64,000 nucleotides of DNA from an uncultured bacterium (GCA_963705505.1 CAVPJU010000002.1:62549-126548), one strand, 5' to 3'. Shown: positions 52,010 to 64,000, numbered from the stretch's first letter. Made by a program: numbers and translations. Notes: generated from the sequence alone by a model not told the origin.

Positions 52010-52267
52010 TTATTTAACCAGCCCTTCCTGAATTAGTGTATTGAGACAGTCGGCAACTTCTTTGTCAGGGGGCTCCGGAAGACTATAAGCCTCCTTTACG
52101 ATAGCCACTATGTCGGCGGCGCTGTTCTTACCCGTGCACGCTTCGAGGACCAGCACGGCGGTTTTATTCAGGTAGTGCACCTTGTCCTTCTCGCTCTGGT
52201 ATATGACATAGCCGTCTTCGACCTCGTTGATCTCGATGCCGGCCGAAATCTTCGGAAATTCGTTCAT
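52010..52267 (-). CDS. PqqD-family RiPP recognition element (RRE)
   Basis: 85 aa; VEDGYVIY...VHYLNKTAVLVLEACTG...L..EGLV. Confidence 0.88.
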   Translation of the reverse strand: MNEFPKISAGIEINEVEDGYVIYQSEKDKVHYLNKTAVLVLEACTGKNSAADIVAIVKEAYSLPEPPDKEVADCLNTLIQEGLVK

Positions 52268-52400
52268 AGTGGTAAGCCCCGCTGCAATTGGAATATTATA
52301 AAACTGAGCACTAAGTATCCCGAATTGCAGACCAGGTTTCAAGACCGCGGGAAAAGGTTATCGGCCAAGAGATATCAGTAGCGATTGGCAGATGGAAGGC

Positions 52401-52437
52401 AAAAAAAACCCGGAGCTTCGGGTGGGACGCTCCGGGG
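52401..52437 (-). terminator. Intrinsic terminator
   Basis: CCCGGAGC-loop-GCTCCGGG followed by T8 on the minus strand. Confidence 0.8.
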
Positions 52438-52477
52438 TATTTAACTGAGTTGATTAATTCTACCGGATGAAAATAAC

Positions 52478-52633
52478 TTATGACTGAGTGGGGGTGTCGC
52501 CCGAGCCCGTAGGCTGGTCGGATGAGGTGTCTTTATCCTTTCCGCCGCAGGCGAGTGCATTAGATGTAACGAGAACTGCTCCGCCCAACGCGATCCCCAG
52601 TGTGATTGCCAGTGTGAATAATATCTTTTTCAT
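52478..52633 (-). CDS. 51-aa exported peptide or small lipoprotein (not in ORF track)
   Basis: AGGAGG RBS; MKKILFTLAITLGIALGGAVLVTSNALACGGKDKDTSSDQPTGSGDTPTQS; own terminator. Confidence 0.7.
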   Translation of the reverse strand: MKKILFTLAITLGIALGGAVLVTSNALACGGKDKDTSSDQPTGSGDTPTQS

Positions 52634-52731
52634 ATTGCCTTACCTCCTGCTTTTTTGTATGTAAAAGTTTAGCCTAAGGTGTGAAATATTGCCAGTATTT
52701 TTTAGGCGAACGGCCTGAGCTTATCGTCTAT

Positions 52732-53574
52732 TCACCCACGCGGTTTCCTCGCCCACGCGCTTATCCAGGTGTTCGACATCCCCAACCCGTCCGTTGACCC
52801 GCTCGCGATCGCTTCCCCGATAAGTCTCATCTTGAGAGTATCGATGCCGACTTCATCCGCAGTCGCCACACCTAGCTTTTCCATAGTCGGCACGAGGCTC
52901 CTTATAGTGCTCACGAACCAGTCAATGCCGGGAGAGTTCGCCCCACCTATGAACGCGTCGAGGTGCATAGTGGGCTCGGGCAGCCCTGCTTTCTTATAAA
53001 CGGGCAGGAGCTTGAACCCCATCTGCATCTCTGTCCCCGACTTTTCCATCGTGGCGTAGAGCCAGTCCCAGAGCTTCATGAATAATGGTAACGGAGGTAT
53101 AGCGACAGGGCGTATAGTGAAGTCCACCTCCTGAAACGCGACCACGCCGCCTGGCTTGACGTGGCGCAGCAGCACCTTCAGGACTTCCTCAGGCTTGGGC
53201 ACGTACATCAGCACGGCGCGTCCGACAAGGGCGTCGAATACCCCCTCGGGCTCGGCTGCGCTTATATCCCCTCCGACGAACCTTATATTTTTATATCCCC
53301 CTTCCTCGGCTCGTTTTTTTGCGGTCTTGAGAATCTCGGGGTTCCTCTCTATACTGACTACCTCCCCTTCCGGTCCCACCATCTCGGCGAGAAGAAGCGC
53401 GACGTCTCCGGCCCCTGTGCCGAGCTCGAGCACCTTCATACCCCTCTCGATCCCCGCAAGCTCGAATATCCTCCGGGTCGTCTGCATTATTATCCGCGAC
53501 TGCTCCTGAAGCCGCTTCTTTTCATTCTCTGTATCGCTCAATGCGTATTCTTTTTTAAGGTCTGTATCTGCCAT
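52732..53574 (-). CDS. Class I SAM-dependent methyltransferase
   Basis: E..RL..Q, VLELGTGAGDV, FDALVGR, KPGG. Confidence 0.88.
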   Translation of the reverse strand: MADTDLKKEYALSDTENEKKRLQEQSRIIMQTTRRIFELAGIERGMKVLELGTGAGDVALLLAEMVGPEGEVVSIERNPEILKTAKKRAEEGGYKNIRFVGGDISAAEPEGVFDALVGRAVLMYVPKPEEVLKVLLRHVKPGGVVAFQEVDFTIRPVAIPPLPLFMKLWDWLYATMEKSGTEMQMGFKLLPVYKKAGLPEPTMHLDAFIGGANSPGIDWFVSTIRSLVPTMEKLGVATADEVGIDTLKMRLIGEAIASGSTDGLGMSNTWISAWARKPRG

Positions 53575-53716
53575 GTTATTTTCTCCTGCAGTTAGTATAA
53601 CTGTCTCGCGACTGACCCTATAAAATAAATATTCTCCCTGTGGTGGAAAAATTCTCTGCGTCTTTTTCCCATATTCCACGTCTATATTGGTAGAATATCA
53701 ATAAAGGAGGCCCTAG

Positions 53717-55993: not shown

Positions 55994-56025
55994 TACGGCA
56001 TCCGTGCCCGCTAGTATCTCAAGTC

Positions 56026-56195
56026 GTCATTGCGAGCCGCAGGCGAAGCAATCTCGTTTGTCTTTCATCCTTCATCCTGAGCATTGAGCCTGTCCTGAGC
56101 GTAGTCGAAAGATCGAAGGATGCCTTACTTACTTCCCTCCCCCCTAAAGGGGTGAGGGTTGGGTGGGGGTGTCATTTCGACCAAGGGGAGAAATC
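56026..56195. repeat. Cluster of four REP-like palindromes
   Basis: GTCATTGCGAG..GCAATCTC; TCCTGAGCGTAGTCGAA; CCCTCCCC..GAGGG; GTCATTTCGA..GAGAAATC. Confidence 0.6.
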
Positions 56196-56287
56196 AATCA
56201 TTTAAGCCGTCATCTTCTATAAGGTGAGAAAAATATTGTGCAGCGTTGGCAACTTCAATATTTTCTTTATCATTCTTATTCTTATTC

Positions 56288-56527
56288 TTATTCAATTTTT
56301 TCCTCAGTTTCCCCTATCTTCTCAGAATTAATTCCTTTCTCATCATCGGCATCGGATACTAAAAACTGAGAAGCAATCTTGGAATCATAAGTAATTATAG
56401 ATTGATTGTATGAATAGTCATCGACGACAAAATATCCGCCATCAGTAACTTTGTAAATACTAGATTTATACATGAGCGGCTTCCTCCTCGTAGAAAAATC
56501 TTCTAAGCTTTTGATTTTGCTCTTCAT
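56288..56527 (-). CDS. Hypothetical protein (AT-rich)
   Basis: Short ORF; GAGG upstream of MYKSSIY. Confidence 0.35.
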   Translation of the reverse strand: MKSKIKSLEDFSTRRKPLMYKSSIYKVTDGGYFVVDDYSYNQSIITYDSKIASQFLVSDADDEKGINSEKIGETEEKIE

Positions 56528-56813
56528 TGCTTTGATTTAATCCTTCAACTTCTGCTTCCGTCAATTCGGAATAACCAGCAGGTGTAATTTTGCTAATAAA
56601 TACTCGACCCCCAACTTTTGGGTCTTGAGTAGATGTTTCTGTGATCAAATAAGCAGCTAATGCACAAAGATTTTCAACTTTCATTCTTCTATTATAGAAT
56701 CTATGCAAAAGATAAATTGCATATTGAGGCACACCCGTAAGCATATATCCATTCGAACATAACTGTATCGCAAAATCTATTTGGCTACTTAACAAATATA
56801 TTTTTGGCAACAA
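56466..56813 (-). pseudogene. C-terminal half of a proteasome-beta/Ntn-hydrolase-like protein
   Basis: G...YA..LL.RFY...M....L..LA...I.ET...D..VGG...I..I...G pattern; no N-terminal half or RBS. Confidence 0.5.
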
Positions 56814-56961
56814 ATTCCCATCTATATTCTTGGAACGTACTGATAACTCTTTCTACAGATTTAGTTAGCGTGTCAGCCAATTTCGATACTTCTTTTTCGA
56901 CCTTATCATTCCCCGTTATTTCGATTTTAAGTGGAATTGTGAGGCTGTTAATCTCCGCCAT
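56785..56961 (-). pseudogene. 58-aa N-terminal stub of a tape-measure-like gene (not in ORF track)
   Basis: AAGGAG RBS; MAEINSLTIPLKIEITGNDKVEKEVSKLADTL resembles MAELTEISLNIKVEGKALETLNSQIGKLASTI at 61140. Confidence 0.55.
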
Positions 56962-57040
56962 GTTTACTCCTTACTACAAAACTGATTATTATTCCAAACA
57001 TATTGCCATTATTTAATTTATACTTTATGTTATATTGATT

Positions 57041-57355
57041 ATGAGCAAGTTGCTTTTAACATTGTCAATGTTGATGTTTCTATCATCTTGCACTTGCACT
57101 CCCAATCCCACAGAAAAACAAAAAGAGTTCGCCAAAAAACTCCTTGAAACTCCAGGTATTCTTCATACCGAGTGGCATACTAATTTATCGCTTTGGATTC
57201 AAATCGCACTCAATTCTCTAGGTCCGAACCCGAAATTGCAGGCACAGTTACTCGCTGATCAAATCGTTGCTGCTGGTTATAAATACACTGAACAAGATAT
57301 TTGTGCTAATATATATTTTGGTGATTTCAATCAATTAGCTAGTTCCTGTAATTAA
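57041..57355 (+). CDS. Small lipoprotein, array 1 copy 1
   Basis: LSSC lipobox; family motif PTEKQKEFAKKL..PGI...W...LG.NPK..AQ.LADQI...G....IC..IY...LASSC. Confidence 0.85.
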   Translation: MSKLLLTLSMLMFLSSCTCTPNPTEKQKEFAKKLLETPGILHTEWHTNLSLWIQIALNSLGPNPKLQAQLLADQIVAAGYKYTEQDICANIYFGDFNQLASSCN

Positions 57356-57373
57356 AAATACAGTCAACAATTT

Positions 57374-57688
57374 ATGAAACTATTACCTCCAATCTTATCC
57401 ATATTTATGTTTCTAATATCATGTGCTACTAATCCAACGGAAAAACAAAAAGCATTCGCGATTTCACTTAAAGATAAACCGGGAATCGTTGATGCAACTT
57501 GGCATGATTCTTGGAATCTTTACGTCGCAGTTGATCTTGATGCTCTAGGATCAAACCCGAAATTAAAAGCACAAGATGTTGCTGACCAGATTGCAGACAA
57601 AGGGCTAAAGGATACTCAACAAACCATATGTGTTACTATTTATTTTGGCAATCATAATAGATTAGCCGATTCTTGTAGAAAGTTGTAA
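57374..57688 (+). CDS. Small lipoprotein, array 1 copy 2
   Basis: LISC lipobox and same family motif. Confidence 0.85.
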   Translation: MKLLPPILSIFMFLISCATNPTEKQKAFAISLKDKPGIVDATWHDSWNLYVAVDLDALGSNPKLKAQDVADQIADKGLKDTQQTICVTIYFGNHNRLADSCRKL

Positions 57689-57738
57689 CACTCCCCACTA
57701 TGACCATTGCTAAATTTATTCTTTGTATTTAATCGCCT

Positions 57739-58053
57739 ATGAAGAAAATACTCCTCTACTTATCCATATTCGTACTTCTAATCTCATGTGCTAATAATCC
57801 AACAGAAAAGCAACTAACTTTTTCAAAAAAGCTGCTCAGTACGCCTGGAATAACACATACAGAATGGGGAAATACTTTGACTTTATGGGTAAAAGTGAAC
57901 CCCGATTCCCTTGGCTTAAACGCGAAACCAAAGGCACAAGAACTCGCTAATAAAATCGCTTCAGCCGGAGTGAGAGAAACACAACAAAATATTTGTGTAG
58001 TTATTTATTTTGCGAGCTATAAGGAAATAGCCAGCTCCTGTATAAATTTTTAG
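57739..58053 (+). CDS. Small lipoprotein, array 1 copy 3
   Basis: LISC lipobox and same family motif. Confidence 0.85.
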   Translation: MKKILLYLSIFVLLISCANNPTEKQLTFSKKLLSTPGITHTEWGNTLTLWVKVNPDSLGLNAKPKAQELANKIASAGVRETQQNICVVIYFASYKEIASSCINF

Positions 58054-58212
58054 CTCTCTCATCATTCGATTTGCGAAATCTCTAAGGTTTGTTACTAAAC
58101 TTTTCAGTAAATTTCATTGGCTGCTAATCCGACTGATAAAGCACCTCGCAGAAAAACTCTTTTTGTCATTCCCGACTCCGATCGGGAATTCATACCTTAT
58201 ATATACGACACC

Positions 58213-61140
58213 TCACACCGCCAGCCTGTATTGCCACTCATCTCTCTCTATCGTCTCCCCAATCGAATCGTTTATATTCCCCGATACTATATTGAACGCG
58301 TCGACGAAGGCATTGAAGGATGCCAGCAGCTCCTCACCCACCTTCGCCCGCTCCTCCCGGCTCCCCGCTTTCTTGAATTTCTCGAACTCCGCATCGAGGA
58401 ATTCACCGGCCTTGCCGGGCAATACCCCCAGGCTCTCAAAAGCCCCCTGGAAGAAGTCCCTTATCGCGAATAGGAATTTAGCCTGCAGTTCCGCATTGAC
58501 GAACGCCTCGAATTTCTTCTTAATCTCCTTGCCCTTCGCGTCAAACTCCAAAAGCCTCTCGCCCTTCACCACTGTCTCGGTATCTACCTTGGTATTGAGC
58601 AGGGCTTCGTTTAGCTGCGCCGCCATCTCGGAGGGGAGCTTGAATATGATTGCCTGTACGGCTTCGATGGTCTCTTTGATCTTCTTCTGAATAATATCCT
58701 TTATCGCGTCGTCCCCGCCTACCCCCAGCCCGGCGCCCCGTTTAACCGAAATCTGTGCGATGGAATCTTTAAAGAAGTCCGCGTCGAGGAACTCGGCAAC
58801 CTGAGTCGCCCTCCTCCCGGTTTCGGTTTTTATGGAATCGAAGTCTATATCCAGCCGCGGCGTCTTTTTGAATAGACCGGAAATGAGCGGAATTGCGAAT
58901 GAAATAACCGAAGCTATAGCCCCTATCACGGGTAAAGCGCTTGAGAGGAAACTTCCTATCCCTGCGAGTGCACCACCCTCGGCAAATAACCCCTTAACAC
59001 TATCAATTATGCTCGACACTCCCGGTATCTTAGAGAGCCCTTTCCCGATTGTTTTAAATCCTTTTCCTATATCGAAGATTCCTCCTAACGAACCAAAAAA
59101 TCCTTTTCCGCCGCCATTCCCGCCGCCTCCCGAGCCGTTCTCTCCCCTGAGCACTGCGTCGAGCACTACACGTATGGGATTCGATATGATAGCGGCCGCA
59201 AACTGAGCAAACGTATTCAGCATTGCGTCGAGAGTCGAATCCCAAAGGTCGGACGGACTCGTCTAAATTCCCCTTCAATCCCCTGAATATCAAATCGGCG
59301 AATGTGTTATTAATTTCAGAGGCTATATCAGCCGCAAATACCCCGACTCGTCTAGCGATTTCTGTGCGGTCTCGCTCGTCTCTTTAAATGTCTCGCCTAC
59401 ATCTTTAATATCCTCCTTAACCTCTACGAAAGGCACCTTGACTCCAGGAAAAATTTCTCTGAAAGTTATTTTCGGTAAGGTATCGTTTATTTCTTGTATT
59501 TTTTGTATAACTGCTTGTAATTCTTCCTCCGTCCATTTCTTAGTTGCTTCCCCCGCCTGATTGACATTTTCGCTATAATTACTCAAGCTTTGCGCATTAG
59601 TTACTAATGATTTGTCAACAAGGCTTGTTTCACCCCGAAGCGAACGCAATATGGATTCCAGTAAACTAACATCTTCACCAGTCTTATTGGACTGATCCCC
59701 GGTCTCATCTAGCTCCTTCCTTATCTTTTTAAACTCCTCTACAGCCCCACGTGTAAAATTAGCTAAGGGTTTTGCAGTTTGTGCTGCCAAGAAATTCAAT
59801 CGGGCGACTGAATTGAATTGCATTTATTATATTCTCTCCCGAGAATGCAGTCTTTAGTGATTCTTTAGCATTACTGGCCTGTTCCTCTACAAAATTTCCT
59901 ACGTTGCTTGCTTGTTCTTTAACAAAATTACTGGCAGTTTCTAACTGATTAGAGGTAAAACTGGTTAACTCTCCCAACCGCTCACTTAAAAAATTATTAA
60001 GATCACCGGACTTTTCTTTTAGGAACCCGCTTACTACATCTGCAGCATTCGTAATGGTATCCCCCGCCGCATCTATCTTTTCACCTACGAAATCTCTAGC
60101 ATTACTTAATTTTTCCTTAATAAAATCAGCGGCATCGAACACTTCAGGAAAATTTTCTTTAAGAAAAGCTAAAAAGTTATTCCATAGCTGCTTTAGACCC
60201 TCAATCATTTTGTCAAAGATCTTTAATACTGATTCGGCGAGACTTAATACAAATTCATCGAGTCTGGTATTGTCCTTGATAAACTGGATTCCATTTGACC
60301 AGAGAGTCTTAATGGTTTCTATAGCGGTATTAAATTTTTCACTTACATTTTCTTTTATAAGATCAAAAACCTGCAGCAATGAAATAATTTTCTCTGATAC
60401 AGTCTCTTTTATCCCCTCCCAGGCTGAGGCCGCACTTTCCTTTAATCCTTCCCATAAATTGCTGACTCTCTGAGATGTACCTTCGATGGATTGAACGACG
60501 GAGTCTACAGCATTACTAACACTTTCCTTAACGTTTTCCCATACTTCTTGCGTTTTCTCTTAACTAAATCCCAGTTTTGTATTAACAGTACGACGGCAGC
60601 AACCACCAAAGCTATTACGGCTGCAATAGTCGCAATCTCTAACCCCGACACTGCGAACACAGCTCCGACAGCTTTTGCGACCCCGGCCAATGCGCCGAAT
60701 GCTAGAACCAACGGCAGCACTACCGCTCCGATGGCTGCCATAGTTGTTAGAAATTTTGTTAACTTGGGGTGCTCCTCTCCGAAATTATCAATTGCCCGGG
60801 TAAGTAAAATGATAAAAGCTGTTAAATCTTTCAAGAAATCTATATTGGTATTTACTACTTCTTGTTTGAAGCCATCAATCGCTTTCTTTAAAGTACTTAA
60901 AGTACCTGTTTGATCTTTGAGAGCATCGAATGAGATTCCGAAAAGTGAAATTTCATCCTTGGTATCTCGTACTTTCATAGCTAACAGTTCCAATTCCCTG
61001 CTAATTCCCCTAAAAGTACTGTCAATTATTTTTCCAGTAGTTTCAATCGTAGATGCTAGCTTGCCGATTTGTGAATTTAAAGTTTCTAAAGCTTTCCCTT
61101 CTACCTTTATATTTAATGAGATTTCAGTGAGTTCCGCCAT
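58213..61140 (-). CDS. Phage tail tape-measure-like protein in four frameshifted pieces (60505-61140, 59759-60379, 59323-59823, 58213-59223)
   Basis: Helical N-terminus, hydrophobic IAAVIALVVAAVVLLIQNWDLVK segment, W-spaced amphipathic repeats, Gly-rich and hydrophobic C-terminal part. Confidence 0.65.
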
Positions 61141-61185
61141 TATCTACCTCGTCCTTAATAAATACAAAAGATAAATTGCACATCC

Positions 61186-61214
61186 TTGCATTAAAACTGA
61201 AACGCGTTTATAAT
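61186..61214 (+). promoter_or_regulatory. sigma70 promoter TTGCAT-17-TATAAT, probably giving a leaderless mRNA for array 2
   Basis: -10 ends 8 nt before ATG 61223, no SD; a similar TTGCCA-17-TATGTT at 57003-57031 precedes array 1. Confidence 0.6.
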
Positions 61215-61222
61215 CACGACTT

Positions 61223-61543
61223 ATGAAAAGAGTGCCATATCTACTAACTATTTTTTTATTACTCTTTTCTTGTAATTTCTCAAAACGCGAACCTAGCGTC
61301 AAACAAAAAGAATTTGCGAAAAAACTTCTTCAAACTCCAGGAATACTCAAGGTCGATTGGTACACAACTAGCATTCTTGATGTAACTGTAGATTTAGATA
61401 GAATGGGTATGCATCCTAAGCTAAAAGCGAAAGAACTTGCTGATCAAATTGGATCAGCCGGATACAGATATACTGGTGAAGCCCTATGCGTTAATATCTT
61501 TTACCCCAATCTCAATAAGCTAGCGAGTTCTTGTACTTTTTAG
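61223..61543 (+). CDS. Small lipoprotein, array 2 copy 1
   Basis: LFSC lipobox and same family motif. Confidence 0.85.
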   Translation: MKRVPYLLTIFLLLFSCNFSKREPSVKQKEFAKKLLQTPGILKVDWYTTSILDVTVDLDRMGMHPKLKAKELADQIGSAGYRYTGEALCVNIFYPNLNKLASSCTF

Positions 61544-61551
61544 CAAATCTC

Positions 61552-61875
61552 ATGATAACAAGATATTTTTATCTTCTAACCATTTGTCTACTGCTCTTTT
61601 CTTGTGATTTTTCGAAACTCGAAAATACCGATAAGCAGAAGGAATTCGCACAAACACTTAAAAAAACGCCGGGTATTTTAGATGCGGAGTGGTCAACTTT
61701 CCATATTATTTATGTTACCGTCGATCTCAGTACCTTGGGTCTAAATCCAAAGCTAAAAGCACAAGAGCTTGCTGATCAAATTTCTGCGGCTGGTTTCAAG
61801 TACACCAATGAAGATATATGTGTAAATATTGTTTACGCGAACCGCAATAAATTAGCCAGCTCTTGCATGTTTTAA
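61552..61875 (+). CDS. Small lipoprotein, array 2 copy 2
   Basis: LFSC lipobox and same family motif. Confidence 0.85.
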   Translation: MITRYFYLLTICLLLFSCDFSKLENTDKQKEFAQTLKKTPGILDAEWSTFHIIYVTVDLSTLGLNPKLKAQELADQISAAGFKYTNEDICVNIVYANRNKLASSCMF

Positions 61876-62210
61876 TAGTACATTCAATCAAAATATTTCT
61901 TTGTCTGTTAGCTTTTTGTGTCTTGTTCTTATTCTTGTGATACTAAACCAGTAGAACCCAATGATAAACAAAAAGAATTTTCTCAAAAACTTCTTGAAGC
62001 TCCGGAGATTCTGGAAGCTGAATCGTATAACTCAACATCAATTGAGGTTACAGATGATTTAGGGAAGTTAGATATAAACCCCGAACTAAAGGCTAAACAG
62101 TTAGCCAACCAGATTGCCTCAGCGGGTTATAGCAATACAGGCAAAGGTCTATGTGTATCAATCTACTATCCGAATAGAACAAACTAGCCGGTACCTGCGT
62201 AAACTATAGA
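61876..62210 (+). pseudogene. Small lipoprotein, array 2 copy 3 (frameshifted at both ends; boundaries approximate)
   Basis: SCDTKPVEPNDKQKEFSQKLL...LC..IYYPNR; KLAGTC continues in another frame. Confidence 0.65.
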
Positions 62211-62292
62211 CTGGGCAAGCTTGTGATTCATCCATTTGCTCAGTAATACTCATTTTGAGTATTTTTCGCGTTTGTTTGGTCATTAGGCATAA

Positions 62293-64000
62293 CTACGCCG
62301 CCAATCTGCTCTCAAATTCCTCCCCTTGAATCGTCTGCCCTATCGCGTCATTCACGTTGCCCGATACTATATTGAACGCGTCGACGAATGCATTGAACTG
62401 GTCTAAGAGCGCCTTTCCTATCTCCGCCCTGGCCTCTGGCGAGCCGGCTTTTTGAAATGCCGCGAATTGCTCATCTATCACAGCCTGTGCTTTTCGGGTA
62501 AAGCTCCAATGCAACAAAAGCCTCCTGAAAGAAACTTCTAATTGATTCTAAAAATCTTCCCTGTAAATCTCCCTGTAGGAATTTTTCTAGTTTATCTTGA
62601 ATATTCTTCGCGCCCTTTGCATCGAATCCCAATAAATTTGAACGCCCTATTTTTGATTCCATATCGACAGCGGTATTTAGTAAAGCATCATTTAAGATAG
62701 CTGCCATATCAGCGGGCAATTTATTTATTATGTCTTGAATGCTTTGAATCGTATCCGCTATAGCTTTTTGTATTGCATCTTTTAATTTGTCCCTTTCCTT
62801 CCCGCTAAACGCCCCGCCGCCGCCATGAGAGGATAGAGTTTTAAATATCTCATCGCTGAATAATTCAGGGTCTAAAAATTCTTTTACTAAAGCAGCCCTC
62901 TCGCCTATGTCGGTCTTTATAGATTCGAATTTGAATGCGAAATGAGGGGTCTTCTTGAGCAAGGGGAGAATAAGCGTTACAACCAATGCCGCGGCTGCTA
63001 AGGCCGCGCCTATGATTGTTATTGCAGCACCTGCGGTTGCGAGTAATCCCGGTGTAGCTGCGGTCTCGGCAAGTGAAGCACCCACAGAACCACCTGCTGC
63101 AAAAGAGCCAGTACCTGATCGGGCTGCCCCTCCTCCAGCAGCCGTTGTAAATGCAGCAGATGAACTTAAACCAAGTCCCGCACCTAGAGTAGCAAACGCC
63201 CCGCCGCTCCCGAATAATCCCGCTATATTCGTACCCGCACCTATGGCTTGCTGTCCCGCTTGTACTGGGTTTCCTCCGCCTTGCTGCTCCCCTTTCAATC
63301 CAAATAGCCCACCTATGGATAGAACTATCTGCCTCGTCGCTATAGCGCTTACCAGGTCGAGGAAAGACCTCAGTATCGCTTCGAACGCCTGCTTCGCAAG
63401 GTCCTTCAGGTCATCAAATTTCCCCGTGAGCACGTTGAAGAACAGGTCCGAAAAATTTTGACTCATCTGGCTGAGCGTGTCGGCGAAGAAGTCCGCCATA
63501 GCTCGCTGTTACTCTGTACGTTCTCTACAAAATCCTTGAACCCCTGCGTTATTCCCTCAAAGAACCCCGCCGAGCTCTGCACCTGATCGATTGTATTCCC
63601 AAACTCCTCCGCACTTGCGCCCGCACTGTCAAATGCAACGGACCCGTCCTCAAGAGACTGATTTACCTGCTCCTGTGTCACCCCGAATACTTTGTTCAAA
63701 TCGTACATTCCCAAGGCTAATACCGTACGTGTTAAATGTCCCCTCCGCCTGTTCCACCTGCCCGCTGGCGGTCTCTATCCGATCTGCCAATTCATCTGTC
63801 TGTCCAGTCAGAGGATCTATACCTTTTTCCCTCAGACTTACCACACTCGCCATTACGCCATTTACTGCATCAGACATATCCCCCTGACCAAGGGTAAAGG
63901 CAGAAACCTCTCCACCAGCCATCGCAAGTGCATTATTAAGCGGCGGGAACAATTTAGTCTGATCATCAATTGCCTTATTTGTCCGTTCAAATTCTTCTCT
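62293..64000 (-). CDS. Second tape-measure-like gene, C-terminal part (frameshifted, runs off the window)
   Basis: FSDLFFNVLTGKFDDLKD, Gly/Ala-rich region, KKTP...F.SIKT..G.RA..V.EFLD and FNAFVDAFNIVSGN shared with 58213-59223. Confidence 0.65.

Follow-up and report, generated by a model that had tools for sequence, protein, structure and literature searches.

At the end of a contig from an uncultured bacterium, genes resembling phage tape-measure protein (TMP) genes alternate with divergent triplets of lipoprotein genes, raising the question of whether these modules constitute a system of their own or belong to a phage. Within the window (the whole 64,000-nucleotide stretch of DNA that was analysed), the region from 56785 to the window end opens with a TMP stub, after which come three lipoprotein genes, a TMP-like gene of 2.9 kb, three further lipoprotein genes and a second TMP-like gene, which is cut where the window and contig C2 end together. 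This ORF map agrees with the tandem layout described in a first-pass annotation of the same DNA, in which each TMP-like gene is accompanied by a divergent lipoprotein triplet.

Layout and frame breaks at the contig end

The features of the locus are as follows.

55994..56784, no strand: low-GC junction from the host M64 peptidase gene to the stub, with two small ORFs
56785..56961, minus strand: stub, a TMP-like gene reduced to its first 58 codons and ended by a stop (ORF list)
57035..57355, plus strand: lipoprotein 1, 106 aa, lipobox LSSC, member of a 36-protein family
57374..57688, plus strand: lipoprotein 2, 104 aa, lipobox LISC (ORF list)
57739..58053, plus strand: lipoprotein 3, 104 aa, lipobox LISC, the copy used for the AF2 model
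58165..58188, minus strand: REP-type palindrome TCCCGA..TCGGGAATGAC, directly past the gene A stop, aligned with relatives
58213..61140, minus strand: gene A, short-form TMP paralogue, ~976 codons (2928 bp), in ~5 pieces over two frames
58280..58308, no strand: 29-mer copy 1, encoding part of ..AFVDAFNIVSGN..
61223..61543, plus strand: lipoprotein 4, 106 aa, lipobox LFSC (ORF list)
61531..61875, plus strand: lipoprotein 5, 114 aa from a TTG start (ATG at 61552), lipobox LFSC
61918..62187, plus strand: lipoprotein 6, broken at both ends, with the signal peptide and the last ~10 residues in other frames
62293..64000, minus strand: gene B, second short-form TMP paralogue, in 4 pieces, 5′ end past the contig end, tail ..EFESRLAA
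62360..62388, no strand: 29-mer copy 2, an exact match to copy 1

The lipoprotein genes have a GC content of 0.35-0.38, against 0.40-0.52 for the TMP genes and 0.48-0.58 for the host flank, and lipoprotein 6 contains one in-frame TAG. Consensus scans detected promoter-like and terminator-like sites at a frequency not above that of shuffled sequence. The palindrome at 58165 is a host-wide repeat with 26 pattern matches in the genome and is not specific to the modules. The small ORFs of the junction (56288-56527 and 56466-56813, minus strand) are without relatives, and comparison with G076:C26 indicated that in relatives this position is occupied by fibre, lysis and tail-tip genes. No phage-gene matches were found downstream of the stub, and tblastn detected no capsid, tube, chaperone, fibre or lysin homologues in the window or in the rest of the 10-contig assembly. 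The claim that no other phage genes accompany the modules therefore stands for the window and the assembly, and with respect to the flanks it holds on one side only because the window end is the contig end.

About nine frame breaks occur within 7 kb of the region. Contigs from other runs covered four of seven break sites and contained compensating insertions at all four, within pieces that were near-identical to the window (0-2 differences per 150-180 nt), suggesting that the frameshifts are probably assembly errors. Polishing, which had been proposed as a check, restored gene B to a single open frame of 570 codons using five inserted letters from these contigs; in gene A, one of four frame changes was removed by an insertion present in another run. 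On contig C5, a host gene at the contig end is likewise split across frames.

Tape-measure paralogues and their prophage relatives

The stub aligns from residue 1 to TMP N-termini (E 2e-5 and 4e-5) and, judged by these alignments, is the remnant of the array's last TMP gene. In gene A, the N-terminal part is helical and hydrophobic and the mid-domain globular and conserved; there are also a Gly-rich stretch, a single TM helix and the tail ..EWQYRLAV. PHROG TMP families matched N-terminal pieces (1.9e-8 and 2.6e-8); the window TMP pieces themselves reached no Pfam family, and PF10145 was present in eight of 61 longer homologues of the gene A mid-domain (589-2000 aa). The homology of the long genes corresponds to the N-terminal two-thirds of TMPs from a prophage family found in genomes of the same phylum, and among named homologues the closest belong to MAGs with the label Candidatus Dadabacteria or Thermodesulfobacteriota.

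Genes A and B have in common a domain of ~330 aa (37-60% identity) and differ upstream of it, as had been noted; the label "C-terminal" given to this domain fails, since in a 1411-aa relative it corresponds by alignment to residues 585-908 and is thus mid-TMP. The 29-mer reported at 58280 and 62360, 4080 bp apart, is indeed identical in both genes and lies inside a 68-nt stretch with 85% identity between them; synonymous-site identity around it is nothing unusual. Both genes end at a point corresponding to residue ~908 of the 1411, lacking the last ~500 residues and carrying a different tail, so they represent TMP paralogues rather than complete TMPs. The C-terminal part common to all tip-adjacent TMP copies is absent from both.

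Short forms cut at exactly the same point account for 10 of the 61 database homologues. They finish in a conserved ...EEWEYRLAA-type tail, whose nine residues are better conserved than the remaining protein, and they retain hydrophobic segments; for one short form compared with its long-form relative, dN/dS was 0.30 at dS 0.42. Given the common cut point, the conserved tail and frames kept open at 37-60% identity, short TMPs may have a function of their own, and a view of them as by-products does not account for these three properties.

In relatives, the same genes form part of complete prophages, where they are flanked by the tail chaperone genes on one side and a full-length TMP gene on the other. 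These prophages encode TerS, TerL, portal, scaffold and major head protein, as well as a tube protein (PF18906), a Gp80-like fibre (PF23140) and an endolysin, and their gene order runs tube, chaperone candidates, small genes or array, full TMP, fibres, lysin. The small genes encode envelope proteins (lipoproteins or zinc-ribbon membrane proteins, ZnTM) and are placed on the opposite strand between chaperone and TMP genes. Full-length relatives occupy the tail-operon position, from chaperone to tail-tip genes; the window copies do not, as no tube, chaperone or tip genes lie alongside them or in the rest of the assembly and their upstream side is cut by the contig end. TMP homology and the prophage context in relatives support a phage origin of the genes, and the presence of the modules inside complete prophages contradicts the proposal of an independent polymorphic system without phage context.

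The M64 peptidase gene marks a site common to four genomes of the same genus, being flanked by the prophage in G072:C8, G073:C11 and G076:C26/C27 and by a prophage remnant in G077:C10. A decayed prophage in the flanking DNA had been named as the outcome that would speak against the first-pass annotation; because the prophage lies inside relatives and at the M64 site, as a remnant in G077, half of that outcome was observed. Prophages of the same family without small genes were also identified (G057, G060, G016). In prophage remnants the small genes are the part that survives: G083 has kept seven of them and one TMP gene, beside CBASS, and G087 has kept one lipoprotein gene and ZnTM genes with the TMP gene absent. 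A ZnTM gene and a lipoprotein-like gene also lie beside an integrase in another element (G092:C1).

Lipoproteins and module arrays

Bacterial lipoproteins carry a signal peptide followed by a lipobox ending in Cys. Assigned by this rule, the lipobox falls at alignment column 19 in five of the six copies (LSSC, LISC, LISC, LFSC, LFSC), and the six lipoproteins are 41-63% identical among themselves. An AF2 model of lipoprotein 3 (mean pLDDT 90.4) adopts a common alpha/beta arrangement, with its best match to 4jm1_A (BDI_0842; Z 9.4, rmsd 2.2, 73 residues). BDI_0842 was recovered through both 4jm1 (Z 9.4) and 4hlb (Z 7.7) and also provided the best protein-language-model neighbours (Atlas, score 0.89), while comparison of the lipoproteins with this family (PF21903) yielded no Pfam match and no PDB profile match. 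The BDI_0842 family consists of "alpha-lytic protease prodomain-like" small proteins without known function, so the fold match explains nothing yet. The Ltp repeat domain was not found in the lipoproteins, Pfam at E ≤0.1 returning only chance-level matches, and a BFVD match to "host cell surface-exposed lipoprotein" reached only E 0.22. No similarity of the lipoproteins to Ltp, Llp, Cor or gp15 was detected, and no PADLOC model matched the region.

Host-chromosomal paralogues of the lipoproteins occur in 46 of 120 genomes of the phylum, and the family includes ordinary host paralogues that adjoin ftsK-lolA and minCDE; a close, mostly TMP-adjacent clade is restricted to four genomes. The lipoprotein genes run opposite to the late operon strand, and their position, strand and GC agree with the description of a moron as an insertion within an operon with deviating composition. 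By analogy, they are likely to encode moron-type superinfection-exclusion proteins, and entry exclusion appears the most plausible function on the basis of position, strand, composition and analogy.

To describe the pairing, TMP-like ORFs of at least 300 aa in the loci fetched were counted (n=36). A divergent ZnTM or lipoprotein gene was the nearest upstream ORF in 23 cases, showing that the pairing is conserved; the other 13 were inner pieces of split genes (4) and single TMPs of prophages without small genes (9). The unit of small genes plus TMP 5′ part is repeated two to six times in several genomes, and short-TMP arrays were located at eight loci, six of them in five genomes (G000, G072, G076 on two contigs, G078, G092) and two on IMG/VR contigs. 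No published description of such TMP/small-gene arrays was found in the literature searched, consistent with their having been called undescribed.

The IMG/VR contig L047 matches G076:C27 in two blocks (95.2% over 2831 nt and 88.8% over 1805 nt) that are separated by ~7.1 kb of extra modules. In G078, the 1411-aa TMP is 78% identical to a 652-aa copy over residues 1-595 and 81% identical to a 1355-aa copy over residues 438-1320. As read from L047 and G076:C27, the arrays expand and contract through recombination between TMP copies.

Competing explanations and known systems

We favour, with about even confidence, the reading that the region is a piece of a prophage tail module containing short TMP paralogues and lipoprotein triplets, the lipoproteins likely being exclusion morons and the TMP copies probably recombination cassettes. 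The surviving piece would hold two or more short TMP paralogues, each preceded by three divergent lipoprotein genes. In the lysogen, the prophage would express the lipoproteins, which would reside in the periplasm and, by analogy with HK97 gp15, block DNA entry of phages with a matching TMP or entry route. The short TMP copies would probably be cassettes left and reshuffled by TMP-gene recombination, tolerated or kept harmless and not needed for tail building.

Several observations could be accommodated by a dead prophage, in which unequal crossing-over in a repetitive gene left TMP duplicates as neutral debris and the lipoproteins are unrelated morons with another envelope role or none. The prophage's far end, comprising the last TMP, tail tip, fibres and lysis genes, is missing from the window; G083, G087, G097 and G077 are also partial, in G076 many of the TMP and fibre genes are fragmented, and the lipoprotein family has the ordinary host paralogues described above. 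However, the array layout recurs with open frames of 750-1037 aa in five genomes and two viral contigs, coding sequences are under purifying selection wherever dS is not saturated, the window frame breaks are absent from other-run contigs at all four covered sites and small genes are what persists in remnants; we therefore regard simple decay as doubtful. Somewhat less probable, and unlikely overall, is a model in which short TMPs are silent or semi-silent donors, each linked to exclusion gene(s) recognising that TMP. The part of the expressed full-length TMP that the exclusion proteins see would be exchanged through recombination with these donors, the lysogen would gather exclusion genes against each TMP type, and the tmRNA-tag-like ..YRLAA tail would mark useless short products for ClpXP degradation. 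Such a degron would follow ClpX recognition rules; the host tmRNA tag is ATNDFALAA and short forms finish in aromatic-x-LAA. This model is consistent with the mosaic TMP copies of G078, with the short forms sharing cut point and tail, and with L047 and G076:C27, where a chimeric full-length TMP appears made of, or resolved into, two array members and a lipoprotein gene moves with a TMP 5′ part as one 95%-identical block. Against it, tandem paralogues recombine without any selected purpose, exclusion proteins recognising a variable TMP part are hypothetical, the gene A tail is LAV rather than LAA, the G078 array has a common tail different from the ..EEWEYRLAA type, and certain arrays, such as that of G078 with about 71 kb between terminase and lysis genes, are seemingly too big for packaging.

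The effector-plus-immunity alternative of the first-pass annotation, with short TMPs as delivered or self-acting membrane-active toxins and lipoproteins or ZnTM proteins as immunity, fits poorly and we consider it very unlikely. TMPs insert into membranes during infection, the short forms keep their hydrophobic segments, gene pairs have diversified jointly and orphan "immunity-like" genes occur without a TMP; but searches with Pfam, PADLOC and fold comparison revealed no toxin domain, the N-terminal part is variable and the C-terminal part conserved (the reverse of polymorphic toxins), and delivery machinery is absent from the assembly (tblastn). Moreover, the small genes are upstream and divergent instead of downstream and co-transcribed, and in G087 they persist TMP-less. 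Finally, a chimeric join or collapsed repeat at a low-GC contig end could in principle have created an unreal module arrangement, and the terminal position, the deviating GC, the frame breaks and the split host gene on C5 are in keeping with this. Such an artefact is hardly credible given that the M64 neighbour flanks the same prophage in four relatives, that independent assemblies have identical module order and that other runs contain near-identical pieces.

With a prophage tail-module piece as the preferred reading, the locus can be compared with described systems. In CDI/Rhs orphan cassettes and pilE/pilS-type silent cassettes, tandem partial copies exchange with a full-length expressed copy. 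The resemblance lies in conserved recombination arms and in the linkage of each partial copy to a small cognate gene; here, however, each partial copy represents the 5′ portion of the gene and has its own start codon, the linked genes lie upstream in divergent orientation, the protein is a virion structural protein instead of a toxin or pilin, and exchange is suggested by two contigs.

The TMP was reportedly identified as the target of the TP-J34 lipoprotein Ltp by Bebeacua et al. in 2013. Ltp of Streptococcus phage TP-J34 is described, in the part of PMC3952083 that deals with it, as a lipoprotein excluding superinfecting phages via the TMP. The window proteins resemble it as phage-encoded lipoproteins with a candidate exclusion role; in contrast, as that part presents it, the Ltp gene belongs to a lysogeny module of a phage with a Gram-positive host and encodes its own repeat domain, and the window has no Ltp Pfam match. 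T5 Llp and Cor, in the relevant section of PMC9586334, are small periplasmic lipoproteins, with Llp jamming the outer-membrane receptor FhuA. Its gene likewise adjoins the tail gene whose action is blocked, although this section places it next to a receptor-binding protein gene, not a TMP gene, and Llp is without homology to the window lipoproteins.

The HK97 gp15 moron, which confers superinfection exclusion (Cumby et al. 2012, as described in PMC3594210), offers the comparison on which the preferred reading draws. According to the passages of PMC3594210 that treat it, gp15 is produced by the prophage and prevents genome entry in a manner dependent on the tail of the incoming phage, its composition is unlike that of the adjacent genes and host chromosomes carry paralogues of it (gp15/YebO); in the same account its gene takes the position of the small genes here. 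gp15 has no sequence or fold relation to the window lipoproteins and is a single inner-membrane protein encoded on the same strand, whereas one to seven lipoprotein or zinc-ribbon membrane genes lie here on the opposite strand and, unlike gp15, repeat together with partial TMP genes.

Gene content and remnant state of the contig end

The end of the window is a fragment of a prophage tail module that carries paralogues of a tape-measure protein (TMP) gene together with divergent genes for envelope proteins. The last base of the window (G000:C2:62549-126548) is also the last base of contig C2 of the window's own genome, and from 56 kb onward the GC content falls from 0.48-0.58 to 0.35-0.52. The ORF map, supplemented for the two long genes by three-frame translations, gave the following order:

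56785-56961, minus strand: TMP stub of 58 codons, whose match to the N-termini of TMPs begins at residue 1 (E 2e-5 and 4e-5)
57035-58053, plus strand: three small ORFs of ~105 aa
58213-61140, minus strand: TMP-like gene A, 2928 bp
61223-62187, plus strand: three further small ORFs
62293 to contig end, minus strand: TMP-like gene B

A domain of ~330 aa (the mid-domain) was present in both gene A and gene B at 37-60% identity, and within it a 29-mer at 58280 and 62360 was exact, inside 68 nt of 85% identity between the two genes. From the ORF order, shared domain and exact repeat, the first-pass annotation had therefore described the region correctly, since its stub, small-gene triplets, two long genes and 29-mer were all recovered. 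Synonymous-codon identity around the 29-mer (0.46-0.49) fell inside the range of the remaining mid-domain (0.33-0.57), so that a nucleic-acid signal was rejected in favour of a conserved peptide motif, perhaps with local gene conversion as well. A hairpin after gene A was rejected as part of the module because the palindromic repeat that forms it, TCCCG(A)..(T)CGGGAATGAC, had 26 pattern matches across the genome, with window copies at 58165-58188 and 56021-56056. At the latter copy, other metagenomes contributed very high depth and numerous loose ends, and the repeat is thus present well beyond the window's organism. Promoter and terminator scans remained at chance level, and no window protein was matched by PADLOC. 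Elsewhere in the window, at 52010-53679, a possible small peptide-modification cluster has glycosyltransferase genes upstream and an ECF sigma factor gene adjoining; it comprises a PqqD-like ORF (PF05402), a methyltransferase gene and a 51-aa ORF (52478-52633) whose signal peptide is lipoprotein-like.

The host gene just before the region encodes an M64 peptidase. The same kind of prophage follows M64 in four contigs of relatives (G076:C26, G076:C27, G073:C11 and G072:C8), and a remnant of it follows M64 in G077:C10. Where relatives carry the prophage at this site, lysis, fibre and tip genes lie between M64 and the last TMP; in the window, unrelated low-GC DNA (0.8 kb) and the 58-codon stub stand in their place. 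No homologue of the tube, chaperone, tip, fibre or lysin genes was found anywhere in the window's assembly (93.6% complete). The window copy is a prophage remnant at a site common to its relatives. The orthologue of the gene past the G077 remnant is the terminal gene of contig C5 in the window's genome, so C2 and C5 are probably neighbours across an unassembled gap. This last gene of C5 (G000:C5:72757-74212) is split over two frames, and its C-terminal segment is duplicated relative to the G077 orthologue. In the bin G076 (contamination 7%) the M64 locus occurs three times (C26, C27 and C50) and at least two copies are followed by different array versions, so this bin is a mixture of strains with differing arrays.

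Three-frame translation revealed four frame changes in gene A and three in gene B, none located in a long homopolymer, and the sixth small gene was broken at both ends. Small near-identical pieces of the region were recovered from three public runs of two studies (X1-X3, sediment metagenomes), in which coverage of the region was 0.05-0.07 of sampled words. Relative to the window, these contigs contained insertions at 59346, 62490, 62507, 63499 and 63704, corresponding exactly to the four frame-change sites that they cover; three of gene A's four sites and both breaks in the sixth small gene lie outside them. With the insertions, gene B became a single uninterrupted 570-codon frame, and gene A lost one break. 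Host genes at 43-52 kb appear whole, and the C5 gene is likewise split across frames compared with its orthologue. We conclude that the breaks are quite probably consensus errors of this assembly rather than decay, and that intact versions certainly exist.

Short and long tape-measure forms and their lipoprotein neighbours

Pieces of genes A and B had no Pfam match; their N-terminal pieces matched PHROG TMP families at 1.9e-8 and 2.6e-8. A 336-aa piece of gene A retrieved 61 homologues, among proteins of 589-2000 aa, with PF10145 in 8 of the 61, and the few named ones came from metagenome-assembled genomes labelled Candidatus Dadabacteria, Thermodesulfobacteriota or Deltaproteobacteria. Within the phylum the mid-domain occurred in 16 of 120 genomes, and in the window's family in 12 of 32. 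The first-pass annotation had called the shared domain C-terminal. In full-length proteins it proved to be internal, spanning residues 585-908 in a TMP of 1411 aa and 397-719 in one of 1229 aa; genes A and B are therefore short forms of the protein, without the last ~500 residues.

At the point of divergence, long forms read ..DSIGQTIQ-SINNLS.. and continue, in all cases ending in ..LRSAIQEAGAKRMG-like sequence, whereas short forms end ..DSIGQTIQ-KEEWEYRLAA. The 61 homologues comprised 10 short forms (684-1037 aa), 37 long forms and 14 that were not classable. Eight of the 10 short forms stop 25 residues past an NIVSGN motif with an EEWEYRLAA-type tail, the motif's search pattern having missed the other two; in three copies the same type of tail also occurs at an earlier cut point, a Gly-rich stretch. 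Tails of this type were located as follows:

Window 58213-58245 (gene A, ending ..EWQYRLAV)
Window 62293-62325 (gene B)
Locus L028, from 17386
Contig L047
P0014, P0017 and others

The tail consists of an aromatic residue, any residue and LAA, and is conserved better than the rest of the protein. Under the recognition rules of ClpX, an LAA-type end, as in the tmRNA tag, targets a protein to ClpXP. The host tmRNA tag was predicted by ARAGORN to be ATNDFALAA, and this likeness of the two ends suggests that the short-form tail may mimic a ClpXP degron. Unequal crossing-over with the ends of the upstream chaperone-like genes was rejected as the source of the YRLAA tail, the C-termini of those genes being dissimilar.

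The six small window proteins were 41-63% identical to one another, and five of the six contained a signal peptide and lipobox (LSSC, LISC or LFSC) plus two more conserved cysteines. The family had 36 close members in a set of 5.8 billion proteins, with a Pfam domain in none. Four genomes contained the close clade (E <1e-24), at 12 places in total, and at 11 of these places TMP-like genes were adjacent. In 46 of 120 genomes from the phylum a profile search detected weaker host paralogues, one or two in each. The two in the window's genome (C6:663927-664274 and C10:384983-385309) are secreted proteins of ~110 aa that lack a lipobox; one gene immediately follows ftsK-lolA and the other adjoins minCDE.

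In an AF2 model of the mid-domain, a single TM helix precedes a globular alpha/beta domain, modelled at pLDDT 93-98 for gene A residues ~120-315 (window 58213-58860). Against solved structures it had no match (best Foldseek E 0.61, best VIA Z 5.3), a result that does not imply a new fold. Sequence profiles run against the PDB returned nothing for the lipoprotein and vimentin alone, at E 0.86, for the mid-domain. The lipoprotein was modelled (pLDDT 90.4) as a small alpha-beta-beta-alpha-beta-beta domain, whose best solved match was 4jm1_A (BDI_0842; Z 9.4, rmsd 2.2, 73 residues) and which the Atlas placed near PF21903 clusters (0.89); neither match tells its function. Foldseek with this model gave nothing at E <=0.001 in PDB or BFVD, and its weak rows included phage lipoproteins and T2SS pilotins. 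Complex prediction for the TMP mid-domain (336 aa) and the mature lipoprotein scored 0.21 and 0.00, both under the mark of 0.32, and speaks neither for nor against binding.

Arrays of TMP and small genes in related prophages

Regions of 20-60 kb were fetched around matches in relatives, and all ORFs were clustered and scanned. The head genes of a complete prophage were found in G081 and G078 (small and large terminase, portal, scaffold, major head protein and tail terminator). Scans of G078 and G092 identified tail genes (tube, PF18906; two chaperone-position genes; full-length TMP; a conserved 265-aa gene) and fibre and lysis genes (Gp80-like fibre, PF23140; a ~1200-aa fibre; endolysin), and ORF clustering linked G081 to these tail and lysis families. 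In the slot between the chaperone-position genes and TMP lie small genes on the opposite strand, of two families: the lipoproteins and zinc-ribbon membrane proteins (ZnTM), the latter with an N-terminal CxxC..CxxC motif and TM helices. The layouts were as follows:

G081: four ZnTM genes and one TMP
G078: six TMP-like genes of 1355, 717, 652, 1411, ~410 and 673 aa, with two ZnTM genes before each
G092:C20, G076:C26, G076:C27 and G072:C8: 2-3 TMP-like genes with lipoprotein and/or ZnTM genes
IMG/VR contigs L047 and L048: 4 and 3 TMP-like genes, respectively

Such small genes are absent from the prophages of this kind in G057, G060 and G016. Among 36 TMP-like ORFs of at least 300 aa that start inside a fetched locus, the nearest upstream ORF was a divergent ZnTM or lipoprotein gene, 33-191 bp away, in 23; of the other 13, four were internal fragments of split genes and nine were single TMPs lacking small genes. 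TMP and divergent small genes are conserved as a unit of variable copy number.

The small genes are also preferentially kept in remnants. The G083 remnant retains five ZnTM genes, two lipoprotein genes and one 870-aa TMP with no other phage gene, and G087 retains a lipoprotein gene, four ZnTM genes and chaperone fragments with no TMP. In another element, G092:C1, a ZnTM gene and a lipoprotein-like gene stand next to an integrase. A type I CBASS lies directly beside the G083 remnant (L035, G083:C34, 11169-12615; PADLOC cyclase 7e-126, 2TM effector 4e-76).

A ZnTM gene was also found on the opposite strand among the head-tail connector genes (L045, G081:C1, 19084-19422; L054, 12668-13006), so the structural operon has received small genes at more than one site. 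An insertion at 9441-10106 of L027 (G078:C1) separates the chaperone-position genes from the TMP array; it consists of a HicA-like toxin gene (PF07927, under the curated cut-off) and an adjoining small gene, after which come two secreted paralogues of 323 aa and 376 aa.

Contig L047 and G076:C27 matched at 95.2% over 2831 nt and 88.8% over 1805 nt, with ~7.1 kb of extra modules between the blocks. The longer block runs from the tail of the preceding short TMP through a lipoprotein gene into the next TMP, of which it covers the first ~650 codons; the shorter is the 3′ part of the full-length TMP. Two matching blocks with extra modules between them indicate that one form was derived from the other by recombination between TMP copies, an event that, as read from the alignment, also creates or resolves a chimeric full-length TMP. 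The TMP copies of G078 are mosaics of each other. The short form L047-970 and a long-form relative gave dS 0.42 and dN/dS 0.30; for the remaining TMP pairs dS was saturated, with dN/dS of 0.08-0.27.

Possible roles and comparison with known exclusion genes

We infer that the small genes would act as morons, expressed from the prophage and blocking the entry of related phages. The short TMPs may have persisted as tolerated by-products of recombination, may serve as stored cassettes or may be active proteins. It seems unlikely that a phage tail gene is kept as a library of exchangeable cassettes with the logic of antigenic variation applied at DNA injection. Each short copy would then be tied to an exclusion gene recognising it and would recombine with the expressed TMP gene, so that the phage changes what exclusion proteins see; the lysogen would gain exclusion genes against every stored TMP type, and the tail resembling the tmRNA tag would destroy unused short products.

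Although the window copy is incomplete and its integrity uncertain, the recurrent array and the short-form class, with its fixed cut point and tmRNA-tag-like tail, are unexpected and testable. The class may keep truncated structural proteins harmless in a new way or, alternatively, may be a protein with its own role. If phage exclusion by the lipoproteins and ZnTM proteins does act through TMP, the arrays are a record of an arms race over DNA injection and would provide matched target-blocker pairs. For annotation, 'orphan' TMP genes with lipoprotein neighbours should be regarded as prophage remnants, and the frame breaks in the window as likely assembly errors.

The closest precedent for the small genes is HK97 gene 15. 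PMC3594210 places this gene between TMP and the genes for the tail chaperones and describes host paralogues of it (YebO); its product inserts into the inner membrane and excludes phages dependent on their tail region. The reference list of PMC3952083 names TMP as the target of Ltp, and PMC9586334 describes Llp as encoded next to the tail gene it counteracts. Titles and abstracts retrieved in a literature search contained no alternating arrays of TMP and exclusion genes and nothing on prophages of this phylum; there, TMP genes were one or two adjacent, or split, and exclusion genes single. Tail-operon morons with a probable exclusion function are the known part, and their multiplication together with partial TMP genes is new relative to that literature. 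Whereas entry-block genes of prophages are known one at a time (HK97 gp15, Ltp and Llp), here, in prophages of a little-studied, uncultivated phylum, one genomic slot holds whole arrays of exclusion candidates interleaved with up to six partial TMP copies.
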